This document shows, one piece after another, positions 1-64,000 of a stretch of 64,000 nucleotides of DNA (position 1 is its first letter; each line of letters opens with the position of its first letter). The stretch lies in the NCBI RefSeq assembly GCF_050320075.1, contig NZ_CP190022.1; one strand, 5' to 3'. Both the position numbers and the translations under genes were made by a program. Below the pieces are notes generated by a model that was given only the letters and a program-made list of their open reading frames with translations, did not search any database and was not told the DNA's origin. Source of the stretch: Escherichia coli (lineage in GTDB: Bacteria > Pseudomonadota > Gammaproteobacteria > Enterobacterales > Enterobacteriaceae).

Positions 1-380
1 GCCGTGCCCTTCACCAGGATGAAACCGATCCGGAACTGATGTTTCAGGATTATGAGGGATTCCCGGGGAATATGGCCTCTGAATGTCATATCAACTGGGC
101 CTGGGTTGAAGGCTTCCGCCGGGCACGGGATGAAGGCTGCGAAGAGGCTTATCGTCTCTGGGTGGATGATACCGGTGAGACGGATTTTGACAGCTTCCGC
201 GATGCCTGGTGGGGCGAGGCTGACAGTGAGGAGGCTTTTGCGGTTGAGTTCGTCAGTGATACCGGCCTGCTGGCTGACGTGCCGGAGACGGTGGCGCTCT
301 ATTTTGACTATGAGGCGTATGCGCGGGATTTATTCCTGGACTCCTTCACCTTTATTGACGGTCATGTGTTCCGTCGGTGA
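1..380 (+). CDS. ardA: Antirestriction protein ArdA, C-terminal part (5-prime end lies outside the window)
   Basis: Reading frame is open from position 3; acidic C-terminus ...ELMFQDYEGFP...YFDYEAYARDLFLDSFTFIDGHVFRR resembles ArdA family proteins as I recall them; position ~5 kb from oriT fits an IncI leading region. Confidence 0.7.
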   Translation, partial: RALHQDETDPELMFQDYEGFPGNMASECHINWAWVEGFRRARDEGCEEAYRLWVDDTGETDFDSFRDAWWGEADSEEAFAVEFVSDTGLLADVPETVALYFDYEAYARDLFLDSFTFIDGHVFRR

Positions 381-734
381 TTTACTCCCCCGCTCCGGCG
401 GGGGTATGGCCTGCCGGGCCGCCGGAAAACCCTGGCAGGCTTACGCCTGCCTGAAATACAGGAGGGCCGCGCCTGCGGCGCTGCCCTTCCTGCCCGTCAT
501 GGTGTGAGGCATTTTTCTGTTTTGTCGTTTCTGTTGTTCTGATGCCCGGAGGCGGGGACACCCTTCGGCTCCCGGCTGCCTGGCGGCATCCGGTCGTCGG
601 CCCGACTCCGACAGGCAGCTGCTGGCGCACCCGCCAGTCTCCGCCGAACCCGCTGGCGCGGTTTCGGGCTGCCGCTACGGTCCGATGTCTGAAAAACCAG
701 GCCTGCAGCGACCGTTCCGGTCGCGCCGCCCCTG

Positions 735-1085
735 TCGCGCCGGAAACGGCGCTCCCTGCACACCTGACGGTGTGTAAGGCCACTGCGCCTGATGGCGCAG
801 TTGTCTGCCCTTCCGCCGCCACCCCTGCGGCCTGTTTCCCGCTGTGGACTTTCCGGGGGCTGAAGCGGCCACAACACGTCTCAGCCGTCCAGGGGAAGAT
901 GTACCAGCCACAAAACTTTTTGCCGCAGGCGTCAAAAACTTTTGCGTCTGCCCCCGGACAACTGCCCCGTGCCGTGGCAGTCGCTGCCCCATCGGAAAGG
1001 TCCACTGCGGGGAGAAACCCCGAAGAAGTGGACGGCAGAAGGGGCTTTCGCCCCTCCGGGGAATAACCGGTCGGCCCGGCGACCT
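735..1085. promoter_or_regulatory. Frpo/ssi-like leading-region repeat, copy 1 (putative single-strand promoter)
   Basis: About 350 bp, roughly 85 percent identical to 3632-3990; GC-rich, many short inverted repeats (e.g. acacctgacggtgtg, ctgcgcctgatggcgcag); ends just before the start codon at 1110. Confidence 0.5.
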
Positions 1086-1109
1086 GATTCAGCAGAAGGA
1101 GACGTTTTC

Positions 1110-1544
1110 ATGACAGTCAGCAGCACGATTTCCGTTTTTTGCCGAGACGGGGTGTTCCGTACCGTTTACTGCCACCTGCACGGTGAGCCGACCTGGAACG
1201 GTCGCATCCTGCATACCCACTATGCCACCGGTCAGCTGGCCGAAGCCCTGGTTGAACACGGAGATATCCGTTGCCTCGGTCCCCGTTGCGACAAACCCGC
1301 CGGGCATACGCTTCAGAACCCGGTGGACGGTGTGACGGCTTATTACGGACGTGACAGTGGTTTCCGGATGGACAGTGAAGCGCGTGAGTACCGCTCTTTC
1401 AGGGAGGCTATTGCCACTGAAAGCACAGAAGAGGTGCGCTTCCATTATGTGTTCATCGACGGCTACTGGAAGGTGATGTACCGCACGCCGGAAGGCTGGA
1501 AGATGAAAGCGCTCGCGCTGGCACTGCGTCGCTGTCCGGAATGA
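1110..1544 (+). CDS. Hypothetical leading-region protein, 144 aa, Cys/His-rich
   Basis: ATG at 1110 preceded by aggagacg RBS; ORF track frame 942-1544 trimmed to the RBS-supported start; directly downstream of Frpo-like repeat 1. Confidence 0.55.
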   Translation: MTVSSTISVFCRDGVFRTVYCHLHGEPTWNGRILHTHYATGQLAEALVEHGDIRCLGPRCDKPAGHTLQNPVDGVTAYYGRDSGFRMDSEAREYRSFREAIATESTEEVRFHYVFIDGYWKVMYRTPEGWKMKALALALRRCPE

Positions 1545-1636
1545 AAAAAAGCAGGGCGATAAACCCTGCCTTTCTCCGCCGGCGCTTCCCCGTACGGAAG
1601 TCCGGCATCTCATTCACTAACTATGGAGATTATGCT

Positions 1637-1903
1637 ATGAGGCCATCAATTATCTTCGCAACCGCCGAGTATGTAAAGCGTCTGCGTGAAGAGTGCCGGC
1701 GGGAGAACAAACCCCTGCACCGCCATACCCGCTTCAGACGCCAGGAACTGGCACCGGATGAGATTAACCCGGACGTCCTGGCGATGGGCGGTCATATCGC
1801 CAGACGCTGCAGTGAGCGGAAGCGGGTGCGTATCCCCGCCATGAAAGTCAGCGAATGGGGCCACCTGCTCCGCGCGCTTGAAATTGAGCGGGTCTGCCAC
1901 TGA
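1637..1903 (+). CDS. Hypothetical basic protein, 88 aa
   Basis: Internal ATG of ORF 1541-1903 with ggag 8 nt upstream; Arg-rich. Confidence 0.4.
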   Translation: MRPSIIFATAEYVKRLREECRRENKPLHRHTRFRRQELAPDEINPDVLAMGGHIARRCSERKRVRIPAMKVSEWGHLLRALEIERVCH

Positions 1904-1967
1904 TTAACCCTTGCCGTCTGCCTGTGCAGGCGGCAGGATACGTTCAGACATCTCACCAGGAGGAACC

Positions 1968-2906
1968 GTGAGTAAGAAGAAAACCACCACGACGCCCACG
2001 CCGCATGATGCCGCGTTCCGGTCGTTCCTGGCGAACCCCGACGTCGCCAGAGATTTTCTGGAACTGCATCTTCCGGCGGAGTACCGGCAGTTGTGCGACC
2101 TGTCCACGCTGAAGCTGGAACCCGCCACCTTTGTTGAGCCGGACCTGCATCAGTACGCCAGCGATATCCTCTGGAGTGTGAAAACCACCGGGGGTGAAGA
2201 CGGCTATATTTATACGCTCATCGAGCACCAGAGCACCGAAAATCTGTACATGCCTTTCCGCATGTTACGTTACAGTGTGGCGGCGATGCAGAGACATCTG
2301 GAGCAGCACAAAACATTGCCACTGGTGATTCCGGTGCTGTTCTATCATGGTGAGCGCAGCCCGTACCCGTACAGCATGAACTGGCTGGACTGTTTTGAGG
2401 ATCCGGCGCTTGCGGCTAAAATATACACAAAGCCGTTTCCGCTGGTTGATATCACTGTCGTTGATGACAATGAAATCATGAACCATCGCCGGATGGCCGC
2501 ACTGACGCTGCTGATGAAGCATATCCGCCATCGTGACATGATGGAGCTGCTGGACAAACTCCCGCAGGTCATGGTGGAAATTTCAGACGAGCAGGTGCGT
2601 GTTCTGATTCATTACATCGTTAACGCAGGGGACTCTGTATCACCGGAATTTATGCGGGCGCTGGCTGAGCGTCTGCCGCAGCATGAGGATAAACTGATGA
2701 CTATTGCCGAACGTCTTGAGCAGCAAGGAATACAGAAAGGAATACAGCAGGGAATACAGCAGGGAATACAGCAGGGAATACAGAAAGGCCGCATGGAGGA
2801 GAAGCAGGATATTGCGCGTCAGCTTCAGAAAACGGGAATGCCATCTGCACAAATCTGTCAGATCACCGGACTTTCCGAAGCTGAACTGAAGAACATCACT
2901 CACTGA
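1968..2906 (+). CDS. Rpn-family recombination-promoting nuclease (YhgA-like, PD-(D/E)XK) with C-terminal GIQQ repeats
   Basis: GTG at 1968 after aggagg RBS; N-terminal PHDAAF(R)SFL...DFLE...HLP and central IEHQS motifs typical of the YhgA/Rpn family; C-terminal QGIQKGIQQGIQQGIQQGIQKG repeat. Confidence 0.7.
   Translation: MSKKKTTTTPTPHDAAFRSFLANPDVARDFLELHLPAEYRQLCDLSTLKLEPATFVEPDLHQYASDILWSVKTTGGEDGYIYTLIEHQSTENLYMPFRMLRYSVAAMQRHLEQHKTLPLVIPVLFYHGERSPYPYSMNWLDCFEDPALAAKIYTKPFPLVDITVVDDNEIMNHRRMAALTLLMKHIRHRDMMELLDKLPQVMVEISDEQVRVLIHYIVNAGDSVSPEFMRALAERLPQHEDKLMTIAERLEQQGIQKGIQQGIQQGIQQGIQKGRMEEKQDIARQLQKTGMPSAQICQITGLSEAELKNITH
2727..2786 (+). repeat. Five tandem 12-bp units (ggaatacagcag / ggaatacagaaa) inside the Rpn gene
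   Basis: Directly visible tandem repeat; encodes (GIQQ/GIQK)x5. Confidence 0.85.
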
Positions 2907-2920
2907 TGAGAACCACAAAG

Positions 2921-2944
2921 CCCGGCAAAATGCCGGGTTTTTTT
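2921..2944 (+). terminator. Rho-independent terminator after the Rpn gene
   Basis: cccggcaaaatgccggg hairpin followed by ttttttt. Confidence 0.6.
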
Positions 2945-2968
2945 GTCAGCAGGAGCAGAGCAAACAGC

Positions 2969-3151
2969 ATGACGATTGCAGAACGTCTTATACAGAAAGG
3001 TTTCGACGAAGGTTTTAAGAAAGGTGCGCTTGAAGTGGCGCGGGAAATAGCCTGCCGGCTTCGGGATATAGGCTGGTCGCCGGAACGGATTCAGGAGGTC
3101 ACGGGACTTTCCGGTGAAGAACTGAAAAAACTGTTTCCTGATGAGCTGTAG
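2969..3151 (+). CDS. Small protein (60 aa) resembling the Rpn C-terminal domain (YpaA-like)
   Basis: ATG at 2969 after aggag; MTIAERLIQKG...EVTGLSGEELKKL parallels the C-terminus of the upstream Rpn protein (MTIAERLEQQG...QITGLSEAELKNI); the longer track ORF from 2906 reads through the terminator and is rejected. Confidence 0.5.
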   Translation: MTIAERLIQKGFDEGFKKGALEVAREIACRLRDIGWSPERIQEVTGLSGEELKKLFPDEL

Positions 3152-3181
3152 CCTGGCATTCTGCCAGGCTGTGAATCACGC

Positions 3182-3433
3182 TCACACATCCTCTGCCGTT
3201 TCCCCCAGTTCATTTTCCAGTCGCCTGATGATATCTGCCTTACGCATCCCCTGCATGTGAGGCAGCAGGTCACGGACTGAAAGAGCCTGGGTGGTCCTCC
3301 AGACGGTGACGTCCACCTGTTCCGCATTTTCCCAGGCGTGCCATGTTCTCTGCGTCACGCCAAATTCTCTGGCCGCTTTTTCGCGTGACCAGAGCATGCT
3401 TTTTCGCCAGATTCGCAGTTCCCAGCCGGTCAT
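3182..3433 (-). CDS. Helix-turn-helix DNA-binding protein (83 aa)
   Basis: EKAAREFGVTQRTWHAWE looks like a helix-turn-helix segment; aaaggtg RBS before the ATG at 3433. Confidence 0.55.
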   Translation of the reverse strand: MTGWELRIWRKSMLWSREKAAREFGVTQRTWHAWENAEQVDVTVWRTTQALSVRDLLPHMQGMRKADIIRRLENELGETAEDV

Positions 3434-3450
3434 AAAACACCTTTGAAAAA

Positions 3451-3532
3451 GTGAAAAAACTTCACTTTATTTTATCATCATAATCATCAAATCAGCGCGA
3501 TAAATAAGTGTGAAAAAGTGAAGAAATTTCAC
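3451..3532. promoter_or_regulatory. Two GTGAA-N5-TTCAC palindromes in the AT-rich promoter region of the HTH gene (putative operators)
   Basis: gtgaaaaaacttcac at 3451-3465 and gtgaagaaatttcac at 3518-3532, both with aaag/cttt flanks. Confidence 0.4.
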
Positions 3533-3631
3533 TTTTTTTTGATTGTGGGTGTCGTGCTGTTTTCTCTGTTTTCACCTGTGCGGGAGTGGTGTGCCAGTGA
3601 CCACCACATGCCATTGTTGTGCCGTCGTTTT

Positions 3632-3990
3632 TCTTCAGTCGCGCCGGATGCGGCGCTCCCTGCACACCTGACGGTGTGTAAGGCCACTGCGCCTGATGGC
3701 GCAGCTGTCTCTGCCTGTCTGCCGCCGCACTGCGGCCCGTTTTCCGCAGACGGACTTTCCGGGGGTACATACACGACCACATCCCGTTTCAGTCGTCCAG
3801 GGGAGAGATGTACCAGCCACAAAACTTTTTGCCGCAGGCGTCAAAAACTTTTGCGTCTGCCCCCGGACAACTGCCCCGTGACGTGGTGAGCGTCCCCCGT
3901 CGGAAAGGTCCACTGCGGGGAAATCCCCGAAGACCCGGACGGCAGAAGGAGCTTCGCTCCTCCGGGAAATGACCTGGCTGACCCGGCAGT
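3632..3990. promoter_or_regulatory. Frpo/ssi-like leading-region repeat, copy 2
   Basis: Imperfect direct repeat of 735-1085, ending just before the start at 4011. Confidence 0.5.
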
Positions 3991-4010
3991 CGTGACGATG
4001 AGGAGACAAT

Positions 4011-4862
4011 GTGATGAATCAGACTTTACCCACTGCTGACCTGAATACTGCCGGCACGACAGATGTTATTCCGTCTGTGGCTATCGACCGCATCATCGCG
4101 CAGCGTAACGAAGGTATTGCACTGTTCATGCAGGCGATGGAATGCCTGGCGACAGCGCGCAGGATTCTGCTCGATGCTTCCGGTGACATTTTTCTCTACG
4201 GGTTTGAAGACTGCGTGACTGATTCCGTTCGTCGCATGGATAAACCGGAAGAAGCGAAAAGGAATATCACCCGTCTTGCCGACCGGAAAATCTGGGACCG
4301 CCTGATGACAGATACGGGCATGTACACCTTCATGAGTTCATGCCAGCGTGATGAGTGGAACAGCCAGCTGATGAGCGACACCTGTCCTGAAATCATCCTG
4401 GACAATGTACTGGCAACATTCCGCCATCTGAATGCCAGCAAAATGCAGACATTTGAACAGGGACTGATTGATGTCTACCGGAAATTGTCATGGGATTACA
4501 GAACCAATAATCCCTGCCGTCTGGGCAAGAGAATCATTATTGAAAACCTGCTGTACCGCTGGAGTAACGGGCGTGTGACGCTGGACTGCAGCGGGCGGGA
4601 GGCACTGGATGACCTGGTACGTCCGTTTTATCTGCTGGATGGGCGCAACATTCCTGACTTCCGGAGCAGCATCGGGGCGCAGTATGGTGAATTTCTCGGG
4701 AACGGCGACAATGTCGGTAAGCTGTTAGAAGGGGAATATTTTACGGTGCGTGGCTACCAGAAAGGGACCGTACACATTGTCTTTAAGCGTTCTGACCTTG
4801 TTGAAAAACTGAATGATATTATTGCACGGCATTATCCTGGTGCATTGCCGCCACGAGTCTGA
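4011..4862 (+). CDS. Hypothetical leading-region protein, 283 aa (family not recognised with confidence)
   Basis: aggag RBS at 4001-4005, GTG 4011 / ATG 4014; preceded by Frpo-like repeat 2; followed by a hairpin with a T-run at 4875-4903. Confidence 0.55.
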   Translation: MMNQTLPTADLNTAGTTDVIPSVAIDRIIAQRNEGIALFMQAMECLATARRILLDASGDIFLYGFEDCVTDSVRRMDKPEEAKRNITRLADRKIWDRLMTDTGMYTFMSSCQRDEWNSQLMSDTCPEIILDNVLATFRHLNASKMQTFEQGLIDVYRKLSWDYRTNNPCRLGKRIIIENLLYRWSNGRVTLDCSGREALDDLVRPFYLLDGRNIPDFRSSIGAQYGEFLGNGDNVGKLLEGEYFTVRGYQKGTVHIVFKRSDLVEKLNDIIARHYPGALPPRV

Positions 4863-4947
4863 TTAAAAAGAAAAGCCCTGGTATTTATGCCGGGGCTTTT
4901 TTTTCTGTAATCATCATAATCTCAGAACATGATGTGACATTGTCACA

Positions 4948-5283
4948 TCAATTGTTGTTCATATCGATGCCATCTTTTCTGCCTGAATCTGTCTTTTTAG
5001 GTGCTGTTTTAGAGGAAGAACGGCGGGATGGTTTTTTCGATTCTGCTTCCCGAATAATGTCACGAAGTGCCTTCTCTCCTACTTCATACCCTGCATTTTT
5101 GAGCGTGTCACGAACATCTGCCAGTGTATAACCCTTTGTCCTTACCAGGACAATGATGTCATCACGAATGGCATCAAGAAAATCACGCAATGTTTTCCGT
5201 TGAGCGGTGAGGTCCGGCAATTCCGATAAGGCAGATTTTGCCAGCTGGATGTCATCATCTGAGTAAAATTTTTTAGAAGCCAT
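4948..5283 (-). CDS. Hypothetical protein (111 aa) with Lys/Ser/Pro-rich C-terminal tail, divergent from nikA
   Basis: ATG at 5283 with ggagag RBS; tail SKKPSRRSSSKTAPKKTDSGRK suggests nucleic-acid binding. Confidence 0.45.
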   Translation of the reverse strand: MASKKFYSDDDIQLAKSALSELPDLTAQRKTLRDFLDAIRDDIIVLVRTKGYTLADVRDTLKNAGYEVGEKALRDIIREAESKKPSRRSSSKTAPKKTDSGRKDGIDMNNN

Positions 5284-5329
5284 TAGCACTTTCTCTCCGT
5301 TTCATGTTGAAGTCTGATTTTATCATCAA

Positions 5330-5515
5330 AAACTGACTCCTGGCAGGGCTGCGCCCTGCCTCTGCCGTCTGCATAAGACTATGATGCACAAAAATAACAG
5401 GCTATAATGGCCTGAAAAACGGGACAGGATGTGGGAATGTCGGACCGCGCACGCGCACTCAGACATTCCCCACCTGGTCAGGGCTTTGCCCCGACACCCC
5501 GGTAAGGAGCAGACC
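5330..5515. other. Origin of transfer (oriT) region, approximate
   Basis: Immediately upstream of nikA; inverted repeats ggcagggc-tgc-gccctgcc (5343-5361) and gggaatgtc...gacattccc (about 5433-5471); nick site not identified. Confidence 0.45.
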
Positions 5516-5848
5516 ATGAGTGAGAAGAAAACCCGAACGGGCAGTGAGAACAGGAAGAGAATTGTAAAATTCACGGCGAGATTCACGGAGGATGAGGCTG
5601 AAATCGTAAGAGAAAAAGCGGAGTCAAGTGGACAGACGGTTTCAACATTTATACGAAGCTCTTCACTGGATAAGGTGGTTAACTGCCGTACTGACGACCG
5701 TATGATTGATGAGATTATGCGTCTTGGCCGCCTTCAGAAGCATCTGTTTGTGGAGGGAAAACGCACTGGTGATAAGGAGTATGCAGAGGTTCTTGTTGCC
5801 ATTACTGAATATGTCAATGCTCTGCGAAGAGACTTAATGGGACGCTGA
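5516..5848 (+). CDS. nikA: NikA relaxosome accessory protein (ribbon-helix-helix)
   Basis: aaggag RBS; MSEKKTRTGSENRKRIVKFTARFTEDEAEIVREKAE matches my memory of R64 NikA; about 110 aa; directly followed by the relaxase. Confidence 0.85.
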   Translation: MSEKKTRTGSENRKRIVKFTARFTEDEAEIVREKAESSGQTVSTFIRSSSLDKVVNCRTDDRMIDEIMRLGRLQKHLFVEGKRTGDKEYAEVLVAITEYVNALRRDLMGR

Positions 5849-5859
5849 GATAACTGCTG

Positions 5860-8580
5860 ATGAATGCCATTATTCCGCACAAAAGACGTGACGGCAGGTC
5901 TTCCTTTGAAGACCTGATTGCGTACACGTCTGTGCGGGATGATGTGCAGGAAAATGAGCTCACAGAAGACAGCGAAATCAAGAGTGATGTCCCTCACCGC
6001 AACCGTTTCAGACGGCTTGTTGATTATGCAACACGCCTGCGTAACGAAAAATTTGTCTCCCTGATTGATGTGATGAAAGACGGCAGTCAGTGGGTAAATT
6101 TCTATGGCGTAACCTGTTTCCATAACTGCAATTCACTGGAAACAGCTGCTGAAGAGATGCAGTACAAGGCGGACAAAGCTGTTTTTTCCCGTAATGATAC
6201 AGACCCCGTTTTCCACTACATTCTTTCCTGGCCTGCGCATGAAAGCCCGCGTCCTGAGCAGCTTTTTGACTGTGTGCGTCACACACTGAAATCTCTTGAA
6301 CTCTCAAAACATCAGTACGTGGCTGCCGTTCATACGGACACGGATAATCTGCATGTGCATGTTGCCGTGAATCGTGTACATCCTGAAACTGGTTATATTA
6401 ACTGGCTTTCCTGGAGCCAGGAAAAACTCAGTCGTGCATGCCGTGAACTTGAACTTAAGCACGGATTTGCGCCGGATAATGGCTGCTTTGTGCATGCACC
6501 CGGCAACCGTATTGTGCGCAAAACAGCGCTGGTACGTGAGCGCCGTAATGCCTGGCGACGCGGGAAAAAGCAGACGTTCAGGGAATATATTGCGCAGATG
6601 TCGATTGCCGGGCTGCGTGAAGAGCCCGCACAGGACTGGTTATCTTTGCATAAACGGCTGGCCAGTGATGGTCTGTATATCACGATGCAGGAAGGGGAAC
6701 TGGTGGTGAAGGATGGCTGGGACAGAGCGCGGGAAGGTGTTGCACTCAGTTCGTTCGGACCGTCATGGACAGCTGAAAAACTGGGGCGGAAACTGGGGGA
6801 ATATCAGCCTGTACCGACAGATATTTTCAGTCAGGTGGGGACACCCGGTCGTTATGATCCGGAAGCCATAAACGTGGATATCCGGCCGGAAAAAGTGGCA
6901 GAAACGGAGAGTCTGAAACAGTACGCCTGTCGTCACTTTGCTGAACGCTTACCGGAAATGGCGCGAAATGGTGAACTGAAAAGTTGCCTGGCTGTACACC
7001 GTACTCTGGCAGAGGCGGGATTATGGATGGGGATTCAGCACGGGCATCTGGTACTGCATGATGGATTTGATAAACAACAGACACCAGTACGTGCAGACAG
7101 TGTGTGGCCGTTAATGACGCTGGATTATATGCAGGATCTGGATGGTGGATGGCACTCTGTACCGAAGGATATTTTTACTCAGGTTATACCCGAAGAACGA
7201 TTCCGGGGACACAGTATTGGCACTCAGGCTGTCAGCGATTACGAATGGTATCGCATGAGGATGGGCACTGGTCCACAGGGTGCCATAAAGCGTGAACTGT
7301 TTTCCGATAAGGAAAGTCTGTGGGGATACGCTCTTATTCAGTGCAGGAGCCAGATTGAAGAGATGATAGCTGGCGGGGATTTCAGCTGGCAGGCATGTCA
7401 TGAGATGTTTGCGCGTAAAGGGCTTATGCTGCAGAAACAGCATCATGGTCTCGTGATTGTGGATGCGTTTAATCATGAACTGACACCGGTGAAGGCCAGC
7501 AGTATCCACCCGGATTTGACGTTATCCCGGGCCGAGCCTCAGGCCGGGCCATTTGAAATTGCGGCTGCAGATATTTTCGAACGGGTGAAGCCTGAATGTC
7601 GCTACAATCCGGAACTTGCTGCCAGTGATGAAGTGGAGCCCGGCTTCCGGCGCGATCCTGAGCTGCGTCGTGAGCGCCGTGAAGCCCGTGCAGCTGCGCG
7701 GGAAGATTTGCGTGCGCGTTATCTTGCATGGAAGGAACACTGGCGTAAACCCGATTTACGTTACGGCGAACGGTTGCGGGAAATTCATGCTGCCTGCCGT
7801 CGTCGCAAGGCTCATATCCGCGTGCAGTTCCGGGATCCACAATTGCGTAAACTGCATTACCATATTGCAGAAGTGCAACGTATGCAGGCGCTGATCAGAC
7901 TGAAGGAAAATGTCAGGGAAGAGCGACTGGCGCTGATGGCGGAGGGTAAGTGGTATCCGTTGTCCTACCGGCAGTGGGTGGAACAACAGGCGGCGCAAGG
8001 CGACAGAGCTGCAGTGTCACAGCTCCGAGGCTGGGATTATCGCGATCGTCGCTCGCGTAATAAGGATAAAAGACGCACAACTAATGCTGATCGTTGTGTC
8101 GTTCTCTGCGAACCCGGAGGAACGCCACTTTTTAATAATGTTGCAAAACTTGAAGCTCGTCTTCAGAAAAATGGAAGTGTTCATTTCAGGGATACGCGGA
8201 CAGGAAAAAATGTCTGTACGGATTACGGAGATCGGGTTGTGTTCTACCATCACACGGACCGAAATGAACTGGCAGAGAAGCTTGATTTAATTGCGCCAGT
8301 TCTGTTCAGCCGCAACGGAAAGCTTGGTTTTGAGCCGGAAGGTTCATACCAGCAGTTTAATGATGTGTTTGCAGAAATGGTGGCCTGGCACAATGCAGCG
8401 GGAATAACCGGAAACGGACACTTCACCATTACTCGTCCGGACGTGGATTTGCACCGTCAACGCAGTGAGCAGTATTACCGGGAATATATCAGACAGCAGA
8501 CCCGTTTATCGGAGAGCCATGATGATAATTATACGTTACGGCAGGAGAAAACATGGGAGCCACCATCACCTGGAATGTAA
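5860..8580 (+). CDS. nikB: NikB relaxase (MOBP family)
   Basis: 906 aa, start MNAIIPHKRRDG; relaxase His motif region HTDTDNLHVHVAVNRV; size and position as in R64. Confidence 0.85.
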   Translation: MNAIIPHKRRDGRSSFEDLIAYTSVRDDVQENELTEDSEIKSDVPHRNRFRRLVDYATRLRNEKFVSLIDVMKDGSQWVNFYGVTCFHNCNSLETAAEEMQYKADKAVFSRNDTDPVFHYILSWPAHESPRPEQLFDCVRHTLKSLELSKHQYVAAVHTDTDNLHVHVAVNRVHPETGYINWLSWSQEKLSRACRELELKHGFAPDNGCFVHAPGNRIVRKTALVRERRNAWRRGKKQTFREYIAQMSIAGLREEPAQDWLSLHKRLASDGLYITMQEGELVVKDGWDRAREGVALSSFGPSWTAEKLGRKLGEYQPVPTDIFSQVGTPGRYDPEAINVDIRPEKVAETESLKQYACRHFAERLPEMARNGELKSCLAVHRTLAEAGLWMGIQHGHLVLHDGFDKQQTPVRADSVWPLMTLDYMQDLDGGWHSVPKDIFTQVIPEERFRGHSIGTQAVSDYEWYRMRMGTGPQGAIKRELFSDKESLWGYALIQCRSQIEEMIAGGDFSWQACHEMFARKGLMLQKQHHGLVIVDAFNHELTPVKASSIHPDLTLSRAEPQAGPFEIAAADIFERVKPECRYNPELAASDEVEPGFRRDPELRRERREARAAAREDLRARYLAWKEHWRKPDLRYGERLREIHAACRRRKAHIRVQFRDPQLRKLHYHIAEVQRMQALIRLKENVREERLALMAEGKWYPLSYRQWVEQQAAQGDRAAVSQLRGWDYRDRRSRNKDKRRTTNADRCVVLCEPGGTPLFNNVAKLEARLQKNGSVHFRDTRTGKNVCTDYGDRVVFYHHTDRNELAEKLDLIAPVLFSRNGKLGFEPEGSYQQFNDVFAEMVAWHNAAGITGNGHFTITRPDVDLHRQRSEQYYREYIRQQTRLSESHDDNYTLRQEKTWEPPSPGM

Positions 8581-13464: not shown

Positions 13465-13993
13465 GGGGATTCCTCCATAGATGAATGGATAAATTTCGGG
13501 ATTAAGTCGGGTGGCATGAATGCGAATCAGCGCCGGTAATAACCGGACAGGAATGAGTTCAACAGGACATTTTCACAGAGAAGAGCGTGGGAGACAGGTA
13601 CAAAAAAACCGACTGGTGAGGCCGGTTTTTTTGCGATTCCGGGGTGGAGTTGGTGGCTCTGACCGGAGGAAGTCTCTTTTCAACTAACGTTACCAGAATA
13701 GCGTTATATTCACCTGATCGCAATCTGTCAGTTACAATCTATTATTCTGGGAGTAGCGATATCGCCTGAAACAAGTATAATCAGTAAGTTAGCCTTGTCT
13801 GGAGACTTACCTTCGCATCAATCCATCGGGACTATGGATCTGTGCTATTCAAAGACCTGGCCGGACAAACAGGTGGTGCTGTGTCTGGTGCTCTGGCCGG
13901 AGGAAGTCTCTTTTCAGCTAACAATGAGAGAGCTGTTGTGACAGGCAATGTAAGAGTAAGCAGCAGTGATTTCCTCCATTGACGGAGAAACGG

Positions 13994-18466: not shown

Positions 18467-18559
18467 TACATGTCATTAGGTGGAAACCGATTGTGGCAGA
18501 CTGAAAATCGATTAGAATAGCGGCGGGCGCTTGAGGCTGTATGCTGAAAGCGTTTTGTG

Positions 18560-18626
18560 GACGGCATGCAGCAGAAAGCCCCAGGCGATTTTTTTATCAA
18601 TCAACCCAGGGCCCACTGTAATGCCT
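18560..18626 (-). ncRNA. Putative Sok-like antisense RNA of the pnd locus (approximate)
   Basis: Perfect TATAAT on the minus strand (plus-strand coordinates 18633-18638) with upstream TTGCCT; would be antisense to the pndC start region; extent inferred. Confidence 0.25.
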
Positions 18627-18824
18627 CAACAACATTATAGTAGCCCGATGACGGCCGAAAGGCAATGGAGGGGCTGCGATGCCACAACGAACGTTTTTAA
18701 TAATGTTAATCGTCGTCTGTGTGACGATACTGTGTTTTGTCTGGATGGTGAGGGATTCGCTTTGCGGATTTCGTATCGAGCAGGGAAATACAGTGCTTGT
18801 GGCAACGTTAGCCTACGAAGTTAA
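18621..18824 (+). CDS. pndC: PndC (Mok-like frame overlapping pndA)
   Basis: Reading frame overlapping pndA in a different frame, as in hok/mok loci; start chosen at an internal Met. Confidence 0.35.
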   Translation: MPQQHYSSPMTAERQWRGCDATTNVFNNVNRRLCDDTVFCLDGEGFALRISYRAGKYSACGNVSLRS

Positions 18825-63299: not shown

Positions 63300-63846
63300 G
63301 ATTTACGCACTCTTGTAAGCCTTGTGGACGGTTTCGAGGCGGGCGAAAACCGACAACTCCTGCAAACAGGATTAATGGCTGGAAAATATATTACATAAGG
63401 ATGTATCTGTGGCAAGAGTTAATATAAGTAGTTGAATAGATCGTTATATTTGATAAATCAGCATATCATGCTGATTTGTGTGCAGTGTCTGGAGGATTAG
63501 ATCGTTTAAAAATTTTAGGCGATCTCTTCTACTAAAAATGATGAAAAATACAGCATAAAAGATCGTTTGTGAAATTGTTCATTTTTTGACACAGTTCAAA
63601 AAAACGACGCTTTTTCGGGGAGTTAAAGAGGGCCACTGTAACCCTGAGAAATCATGTCGGCTTTTCAAAGCGGTGGAAAAGGGGTATATTGCGGATCGTT
63701 ATGCAGTGGCTTTTGGGATCGTCAGGATCCGGGAAGTCAGAAAACGGCAGGATGCGCCATAAGGCATTCAGGACGTATGGCAGAAACGACGGCAGTTTGC
63801 CGGTGCCGGAAGGCTGAAAAAAGTTTCAGAAGGCCATAAAGGAAAA

Positions 63847-63897
63847 CCCCCACTATCTTTCGTCGAACTTTGGCGGGATCGTGAAAGATAGTGGGGG
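63847..63897. promoter_or_regulatory. Stem-loop with TTGGCG loop motif: candidate structure I / Inc RNA control element of an I-complex replicon
   Basis: Perfect 15-bp stem cccccactatctttc / gaaagatagtggggg around a 21-nt loop containing ttggcg. Confidence 0.5.
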
Positions 63898-64000
63898 CCT
63901 CACAGAATACGGGATAAGTATATATGAAACCGTGTCAGAGATTCAACCCTTTGCAGTGCATTAACGCACGGCAATTTGTTCCCGCCATAAGCGACAGCTT

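Follow-up and report, generated by a model that had tools for sequence, protein, structure and literature searches.

Two direct repeats in the leading region of an I-complex Escherichia coli plasmid are very probably single-stranded DNA promoters of the ssi/Frpo class

Single-strand initiation (ssi) and Frpo elements of conjugative plasmids have reportedly been described since the work of Masai & Arai 1997, Bates 1999 and Nasim 2004. In the F plasmid, Frpo is a stem-loop with -35 and -10 boxes that is used by RNA polymerase on single-stranded DNA (ssDNA), and its RNA can prime DNA synthesis (PMC7690428, PMC9849209); early expression of the leading genes in vivo needs both Frpo1 and Frpo2 (PMC9849209). 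Three imperfect Frpo-homologous repeats, R1-R3, were described in the leading regions of I-complex plasmids in 2013, along with recombination between them (PMC3817090), and a catalogue from 2024 lists 13,089 Frpo homologues (PMC11541004). The elements ssi1-3 of pESBL, an IncI1 plasmid, are "class 1" ssDNA promoters, the starts of which were mapped by 5' rapid amplification of cDNA ends in transconjugants (PMC12672017), and early transient (zygotic) induction of the downstream genes has been shown for both F (PMC9849209) and pESBL (PMC12672017). A 2026 preprint further provides in-vivo evidence that ssp1/Frpo transcripts prime conversion of the incoming strand. Here we consider a pair of direct repeats, copies A and B, in a 64,000-nt stretch of Escherichia coli DNA (contig NZ_CP190022.1 of assembly GCF_050320075.1; hereafter the window), which represents the leading region of a conjugative plasmid of the I-complex (IncK2/Z-like). 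We propose that these repeats are, in all likelihood, two of the three known class-1 ssDNA promoters (ssi/Frpo), serving also as sites of primer-RNA synthesis. The element has already been described (Venturini 2013; Couturier 2023; Samuel 2024; NAR 2025) and no new biology is claimed; the details added here are the minus strand as the acting strand, the exact positional orthology and the anatomy of the hairpin, while a mosaic apex in copy A and an adjoining 175-bp module are minor points beyond the published accounts.

The repeats occupy the following positions, in window coordinates:

734-1080, minus strand: copy A, the middle ssi/Frpo-type repeat, recognized by homology and ssDNA fold
3638-3987, minus strand: copy B, the oriT-proximal ssi/Frpo-type repeat, recognized by homology and ssDNA fold

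A blastn comparison recovers them as direct repeats, spaced 2.9 kb apart, with 85.9% identity over 354 aligned nt (E-value 9e-109), and a MAFFT alignment of the two shows near-identical blocks at 892-977 versus 3801-3886 (97%) and at 734-806 versus 3638-3710 (96%). This agrees well with an initial annotation made from the sequence, which had noted imperfect direct repeats of ~350 bp and ~85% identity that are GC-rich and dense in inverted repeats: the GC content of both copies is 0.61-0.66 in 300-nt windows, and both display dense self-complementarity and self-complementary folds. A 54-nt core taken from that annotation occurs exactly twice in the window against 0 expected, and neither a pattern search nor blastn detected a third copy of the A/B repeat in the 64 kb; in a sister plasmid the third copy is situated just upstream of ssb, beyond the span of this window. 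The same annotation had the repeats end right at a start codon, which is approximately right but needs adjustment in that the similarity stops 27-30 nt upstream of the start codons (ATG 1110; ATG 4014 or GTG 4011), with a Shine-Dalgarno sequence in each intervening gap (AGGAGA before ATG 1110; GAGGAGA before ATG 4014 or GTG 4011).

Comparison with the five known Frpo/ssi reference sequences (Supplementary file 4 of Samuel et al. 2024, PMC11541004) reveals that, over 329 nt in each case, the minus strand of copy B shares 98.8% identity with the oriT-proximal repeat of ColIb-P9 (AJ238399.1:1459-1787) and the minus strand of copy A shares 88.8% with the middle one (AJ238399.1:4353-4678). Both copies also match the core of F ssiD (Frpo) at 74% (E-values 8e-15 and 1.5e-11). 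The resemblance to the Frpo/ssi elements of F and ColIb-P9 that had been suspected at the outset is hence borne out, and the identity of the repeats as members of this group is supported both by the homology and by the hairpin of the transferred strand described below. Relatives are present in more than 5000 plasmid records, mostly from Escherichia, Salmonella, Klebsiella and Shigella, and usually at three places per record. No Rfam family was found for the repeats at either gathering or permissive thresholds.

The ssi1-3 elements of ColIb-P9, R64 and pESBL, alternatively named Frpo1-3 of ColIb-P9 (Samuel 2024) and R1-R3 in pO26-CRL125, resemble the window copies in several ways: the ~330-nt unit is built of a long hairpin and three small ones, orientation and flanking genes agree, and a third copy precedes ssb. 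Copy B has almost the same sequence as the oriT-proximal repeat of ColIb-P9 at an equal distance from nic, and copy A is orthologous by position to the middle repeat. The differences are that the plasmid in the window types as IncK2/Z rather than IncI1, and that the apex of copy A is of the oriT-proximal type rather than the ColIb-P9 middle-repeat type. With Frpo (ssiD = Frpo1/ssp1a) and Frpo2 (ssp1b) of F, the copies have in common their location in the leading region, function on the transferred strand, a long imperfect hairpin with an A/T-rich palindromic apex, the invariant GTCCGGGGG/CCCCTGGAC helix, a TTG(T/C)GG box and a bulge of the form GTnCATyT. In contrast, the outer arms cannot be aligned to those of F by sequence; the IncF hairpins are longer (~300 nt) and are without two of the three small 3' hairpins present in the I-complex copies, and F has two copies as opposed to the three of I-complex plasmids. 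The class-2 and class-3 ssDNA promoters found on the same plasmids (ssp2, ssp3; upstream of klcA/ardA and M.EcoGIX) work by the same principle of a hairpin promoter on the transferred strand, but according to their authors have no sequence homology with ssi/Frpo; the class-2 element upstream of ardA falls outside the window. More distantly, the single-strand origins (sso) of rolling-circle plasmids and the complementary-strand origins of ssDNA phages similarly combine folded ssDNA, host RNA polymerase and a primer RNA, and a review has called sso and Frpo-type elements functionally comparable (PMC7690428). Unlike the elements considered here, sso are not related to them in sequence and serve replication only, whereas ssi/Frpo also yields a translated mRNA.

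Several long open reading frames (ORFs) in the ORF list run across the repeats:

382-1005, minus strand: overlapping ORF
542-1066, plus strand: overlapping ORF
3518-3889, plus strand: overlapping ORF
3635-4009, minus strand: overlapping ORF

Annotations in the PGAP style of several sister plasmids likewise list hypothetical proteins there, for example at 5653-6273 of record L009, equivalent to ~382-1005 of the window on the minus strand. That the repeats code for protein is nevertheless extremely improbable. The copies are separated by 1- and 2-nt indels that break the frame, 0 frames are open in all five I-complex copies (the two in the window and the three of ColIb-P9), and the substitutions among copies are spread evenly over the three codon positions, with no codon periodicity; moreover, chance alone is expected to give long open frames at 65% GC. 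Given that the frames are not conserved between copies, the hypothetical-protein calls are probably spurious calls in GC-rich non-coding DNA, in keeping with the first impression that the overlapping ORFs were unconvincing.

The closest database plasmid is typed as IncK2/Z, MOBP and MPF_I, and Rfam detects the repZ regulatory pseudoknot at gathering level at 63839-63988 (plus strand). The window begins inside ardA, and the gene order runs ardA (ending at 380), copy A, four plus-strand ORFs, a gene for a helix-turn-helix (HTH) protein on the minus strand, copy B, a DUF4942 gene, a minus-strand ORF, the origin of transfer (oriT), nikA and nikB. Both repeats therefore stand between ardA and oriT-nikAB, that is, in the leading region, on the other side of oriT from the relaxase. 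The features that fix the direction of transfer are:

5424-5430 (read 5430 to 5425), minus strand: oriT nick motif ATCCTG/T (nick at the stroke), from the sequence
5517-8580, plus strand: nikA/nikB, with the nikB relaxase gene at 5860-8580, from ORFs and annotation

We take ATCCTG/T to be the MOBP-type nick consensus, as in the oriT of RP4/R64. As this motif lies on the minus strand, the minus strand is the transferred (T) strand and lower coordinates enter first; the T strand is also the template for the genes downstream of both repeats. Copy B is 1.4-1.8 kb and copy A 4.3-4.7 kb away from nic. Counted from the nick, copy B falls at 1461-1789 of the T strand and copy A begins at ~4367, as against 1459-1787 and 4353-4678 for the repeats in the ColIb-P9 record AJ238399. 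The nic-to-repeat distances, in matching the coordinates of the ColIb-P9 record, provide an independent check of the nick position and of the transferred strand. The oriT core (5400-5500) also contains an inverted repeat, GGAATGTC...GACATTCC (~5436-5470), and a GGGGTGTCGGGGCAAAGCCCTGACC repeat (~5474-5500) just upstream of nikA.

When folded as ssDNA, the minus strand of copy A reaches -116 kcal/mol (z -8.8) and its plus strand -100 kcal/mol (z -6.3), while for copy B the respective values are -105.9 kcal/mol (z -8.5) and -87.5 kcal/mol (z -4.5). The transferred strand is thereby more stable than the opposite strand by 16-18 kcal/mol, and 0 of 100 shuffles were as stable as the minus-strand folds, which upholds the earlier expectation of a long, stable ssDNA hairpin on the transferred strand. 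A 300-nt sliding fold over 1-6400 of the window, read against the -75 kcal/mol threshold of the pESBL study, places the T-strand zones below this value only at 341-1140 and 3581-4020, and confines the strand bias to the repeats themselves. The fold has the following parts:

808-1043, minus strand: main imperfect hairpin of copy A, ~235 nt, from the minimum free energy (MFE) helix map, the consensus structure and covariation
1043 to 930, 926-929 and 925 to 808, minus strand: 5' arm, apex loop and 3' arm of the copy A hairpin
782-801, 755-779 and 737-752, minus strand: three short GC-rich hairpins of copy A, 3' of the main hairpin on the T strand
3718-3946, minus strand: main hairpin of copy B with its apex loop at 3835-3838, from the MFE helix map
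3686-3705, 3659-3683 and 3641-3656, minus strand: three short hairpins of copy B, from the ssDNA fold

The three short hairpins belong to the ~328-nt ssi unit and are nearly invariant in the five I-complex copies. These five copies were also used to examine covariation, and their RNAalifold consensus comprises 111 pairs, in which 97.3% of the cells are standard pairs. Compensatory double changes are seen at 10 pairs, where slid controls give 1-3, and the observed values were not attained in any of 500 shuffles. Each copy has 8-9 G:T wobbles on the T strand, which are A:C mismatches on the other strand, while C:A cells on the minus strand number only 2 of ~550; this excess of wobbles with a near-absence of C:A cells is the pattern expected if selection acts to keep the T strand, rather than the sense strand, paired. 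All 16 relatives examined (16/16, including IncF, Klebsiella, Salmonella and Serratia members) fold into one long hairpin with a common A/T-rich palindromic apex, although their outer arms resist alignment. In a MAFFT alignment across I-complex, IncF, Serratia and Salmonella copies RNAalifold recovers only 23 pairs, because just the apex and the GTCCGGGGG/CCCCTGGAC helix are aligned across the families; aligning the outer arms would call for a structure-aware method.

The same observations bear on whether the structure might work as RNA, either as a folded 5' leader of the sense mRNA or as an antisense RNA. Watson-Crick covariation by itself cannot separate DNA from RNA, nor one strand from the other, and the plus strand also beats its shuffles (z -4.5 to -6.3). 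Yet the wobbles of the minus strand would become A:C mismatches in a sense RNA, whose strand is the weaker folder by the margin given above; a sense transcript begun inside the hairpin contains only one of the arms; and neither a matching Rfam family nor a duplex promoter from which an antisense RNA could be made was found. We accordingly consider an RNA-level role highly improbable. The great stability of the hairpins is also what one would look for if their chief function were to act as roadblocks, holding back complementary-strand synthesis and keeping the DNA single-stranded for longer, as for F ssp2, where the 2026 preprint finds that the hairpin of the ssDNA promoter stalls conversion until it is resolved by UvrD. 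However, this activity is reported for the class-2 ssp2 only and not for the ssp1/Frpo class to which these repeats belong, and the class-1 elements in the same preprint sped up conversion through priming, which makes a primary roadblock function quite unlikely.

Taking the repeats as ssDNA promoters, the next matter is where in the hairpin the promoter boxes may lie. Among 15 scanned members, 13 show the same series on the 3' arm when read from apex to base, namely an A-tract, TTG(T/C)GG (TTGCGA in Serratia), 15-17 nt, and TGGACN. In the window the candidates are:

908-913 (read 913 to 908), minus strand: candidate -35 of copy A, TTGTGG, base-paired and preceded by the A/T tract AAAAAGTT, which is UP-element-like
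897-904 (read 904 to 897), minus strand: unpaired bulge of copy A, GTACATCT, in the MFE structure, part of the 16-nt spacer
886-891 (read 891 to 886), minus strand: candidate -10 of copy A, TGGACG, within the invariant CCCCTGGAC/GTCCGGGGG helix
3822 to 3817, 3813 to 3806 and 3799 to 3794, minus strand: candidate -35 TTGTGG, bulge and candidate -10 TGGACG of copy B, from the MFE helix map

The spacer between the candidate boxes is 16-17 nt (16 nt in copy A) with the unpaired bulge included; the bulge motif GTnCATyT is kept from the I-complex to the IncF copies, and G:T wobbles flank TGGACG (alignment columns 107/174 and 102/179). As only one of the arms carries the bulge, just 7 nt separate the equivalents of the boxes on the sense strand of the duplex (TTGCGT-CTGCCCC-CGGACA, 942-960), and this one-arm bulge offers a simple potential reason for promoter activity being limited to the hairpin. 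A promoter scan detected no conventional duplex sigma-70 promoter in or downstream of either repeat. The arrangement with the 5' arm as the non-template strand (TTGTCC-N17-TTTTTG) was considered and rejected, given that F has CTGTCC, so that the box is not conserved, and the -10 is poor.

In light of these features we propose the following sequence of events. NikB would nick oriT near 5424/5425, and the minus strand would enter the recipient 5' end first. After ~1.4 kb of entry for copy B, and then ~4.3 kb for copy A, each repeat would fold into its ~235-nt imperfect hairpin, the stem of which would rebuild a duplex A/T tract and the -35-like TTGTGG, while the unpaired bulge of the 3' arm would give the 16-17-nt spacing to the -10-like TGGACG among its G:T wobbles. 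Host sigma-70 RNA polymerase would then start in the 5' arm, at positions predicted around 950-970 in copy A and 3859-3880 in copy B, copy that arm and run toward higher coordinates into the genes for which the T strand is the template. In this manner copy A would drive the cluster from ORF1110 to the Rpn gene and copy B the DUF4942 gene, early after transfer, and the same transcript could prime complementary-strand synthesis. Conversion to duplex would remove the hairpin and leave the boxes of the sense strand at their short spacing, upon which expression would stop. Recognition by RNA polymerase, dependence on ssDNA, priming and shut-off are here presumed by analogy with the F, ColIb-P9 and pESBL literature.

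A number of points weigh against this interpretation. Transcription from ssDNA, the start sites and priming are extrapolated to this plasmid from its relatives, and we infer the box assignments and starts from conservation and the predicted fold. The candidate -10, TGGACG, is weak and has no consensus A at position 2, and the -10 could alternatively lie in the conserved bulge, which reads TACATC in copy A and TATATC, TGCATT or TTCATT in relatives. The fold energies are in-silico values without SSB; covariation was assessed in only five sequences, of which two share 98.8% identity, and these same sequences served to derive the structure. Finally, the apex of copy A differs from that of its ColIb-P9 orthologue, and the activity of copy A could differ with it.

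A related question is whether the repeats might be mainly priming signals for complementary-strand synthesis in the recipient, with gene expression as a by-product. It was as ssi sequences, after all, that the elements were originally defined; priming of DNA synthesis by Frpo RNA has been seen in vitro (review, PMC7690428); the 2026 preprint reports a rifampicin-sensitive early conversion downstream of ssp1/Frpo promoters in vivo; and no part in the promoter has been assigned to the three small conserved hairpins next to the main one. Primosome-type ssi (phiX174 n'-pas or G4 primase-dependent) are marked by PriA- or DnaG-dependent, rifampicin-resistant priming on clusters of short hairpins, and a conserved trio of short hairpins is present here at 737-801 and 3641-3705. 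A priming role is nonetheless compatible with a promoter role rather than exclusive of it. Furthermore, 27-30 nt away from each repeat are the Shine-Dalgarno signal and start codon of a gene templated by the T strand, and the ssi1-3 starts feed operons that are induced in transconjugants (pESBL, PMC12672017). Thus, priming as the main function appears a serious but somewhat unlikely alternative to ssDNA promoters that also provide primer RNA.

Closer comparison of copy A with its relatives points to a composite origin. In the outer stem (1058-999 and 848-819) it matches the middle repeat of ColIb-P9 at 100%. In the apex (968-909) its identity to that repeat is only 77-90%, and the 100% matches are instead copy B and the oriT-proximal repeat of ColIb-P9; the differing apex region amounts to ~60-90 nt. 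This mosaic suggests gene conversion or recombination between the dispersed repeats. The variant of copy A is found at 95% identity or more in ~520 database plasmids. Such mosaicism, together with the presence of direct repeats 2.9 kb apart, the deletion of leading-region segments by recombination between such repeats (PMC3817090) and a hybrid R1/R3 repeat in pO111-CRL115 (PMC3817090), could be read as the mark of a mobile or recombinogenic repeat, akin to miniature inverted-repeat transposable elements or repetitive extragenic palindromes, or of the boundaries of mobile modules, with no promoter role. Against this, the repeats hold fixed syntenic positions in thousands of plasmids with an orientation that never varies with respect to oriT and the genes; just two copies, pointing the same way, occur in 64 kb; and they display neither terminal inverted repeats, nor target duplications at the ends of the A/B alignment, nor an association with a transposase. 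Moreover, recombination follows from repeated sequence as such and leaves the conserved hairpin and its strand bias unexplained. Two plasmids were inspected for loss of the segment separating A and B: in one, copy A is truncated; the other is laid out normally. A purely mobile or recombinogenic nature is hence very improbable in comparison with a function as ssDNA promoters.

Abutting copy A, and outside the A/B repeat, is a further conserved segment:

562-736, no strand assigned: near-invariant GC-rich 175-bp module

This module, along with the small terminal hairpin, is 95-96% identical to sequences beside the ssb-proximal repeat of the sister plasmid (L001 10211-10384) and beside IncF Frpo-like elements (NR1; pFORC82_2, after hok; L007 2501-2677, L010 901-1077), although in those other plasmids the adjoining hairpins have only ~74-78% identity with the window copies. 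It is found with the middle and ssb-proximal repeats as well as the IncF Frpo elements, and is absent beside the oriT-proximal copy B; it is too invariant for covariation analysis. The module could be a separate cis element of the entering strand, such as a priming or primosome site, a barrier to polymerase or transcription, or an insulator. A more speculative and rather unlikely notion is that the promoter hairpins are part of a larger conserved ssDNA unit, which includes the module and the small terminal hairpin, with exchange of the apex as a form of concerted evolution that keeps the promoter cores matched. Between the ardA stop and the module, the stretch 381-560 is likewise rich in GC, and either strand is strongly complementary to itself, with little strand bias; the T-strand fold of 381-736 is at -105 kcal/mol (z -6.0). 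Part of this stretch, 409-485, has an 83% match in the sister plasmid (L001 10031-10107), upstream of the ssb-proximal repeat.

The genes and signals neighbouring the two repeats are:

1110-1544, 1637-1903, 1968-2906 (Rpn/YhgA-like) and 2906-3151, plus strand: genes downstream of copy A, from ORFs, sister-plasmid annotation and Pfam
3182-3433, minus strand: HTH gene, from ORFs and annotation
4014-4862, plus strand: DUF4942 gene downstream of copy B, from ORFs, annotation and Pfam
~4872-4905: terminator-like hairpin after the DUF4942 gene

The Rpn/YhgA-like gene contains, within 2721-2800, a 12-nt tandem repeat in five copies that encodes GIQQ/GIQK-like units. A small ORF from ATG 2969 to 3151 repeats the C-terminal part of this gene (2697-2728 resembles 2969-3000, and 2860-2893 resembles 3096-3129), and between the two is a terminator-like hairpin at ~2919-2945. 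Between the HTH gene and copy B, the segment 3435-3540 holds two copies of a palindromic motif, AAAAAGTGAA-N-TTCACTTT, and an inverted repeat (3446-3468/3515-3537); the motif pair is probably the operator/promoter of the HTH regulator. Since this regulator is encoded on the T strand, it can be expressed only after conversion to duplex. Elsewhere in the window, Rfam reports at gathering level an AgrB antisense RNA at 13600-13687 (minus strand), which in the sister plasmid lies beside a DinQ-like type I toxin, and a sok-type antitoxin RNA of a pnd/hok locus at 18525-18681 (plus strand).

For the annotation of this plasmid, these observations fix the transferred strand, the oriT nick and the leading region, explain two unannotated GC-rich gaps and flag spurious ORFs. 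By analogy with the described systems, zygotic induction is predicted for the ORF1110-Rpn cluster and the DUF4942 gene, which would make them candidate establishment or anti-defence genes. With hairpin promoters of this kind, the establishment genes of a conjugative plasmid, among them those for anti-restriction and SOS inhibition, can be expressed only minutes after entry, when a second strand has yet to be made, and such early expression from ssDNA is therefore central to the way in which resistance plasmids overcome the defences of the host.

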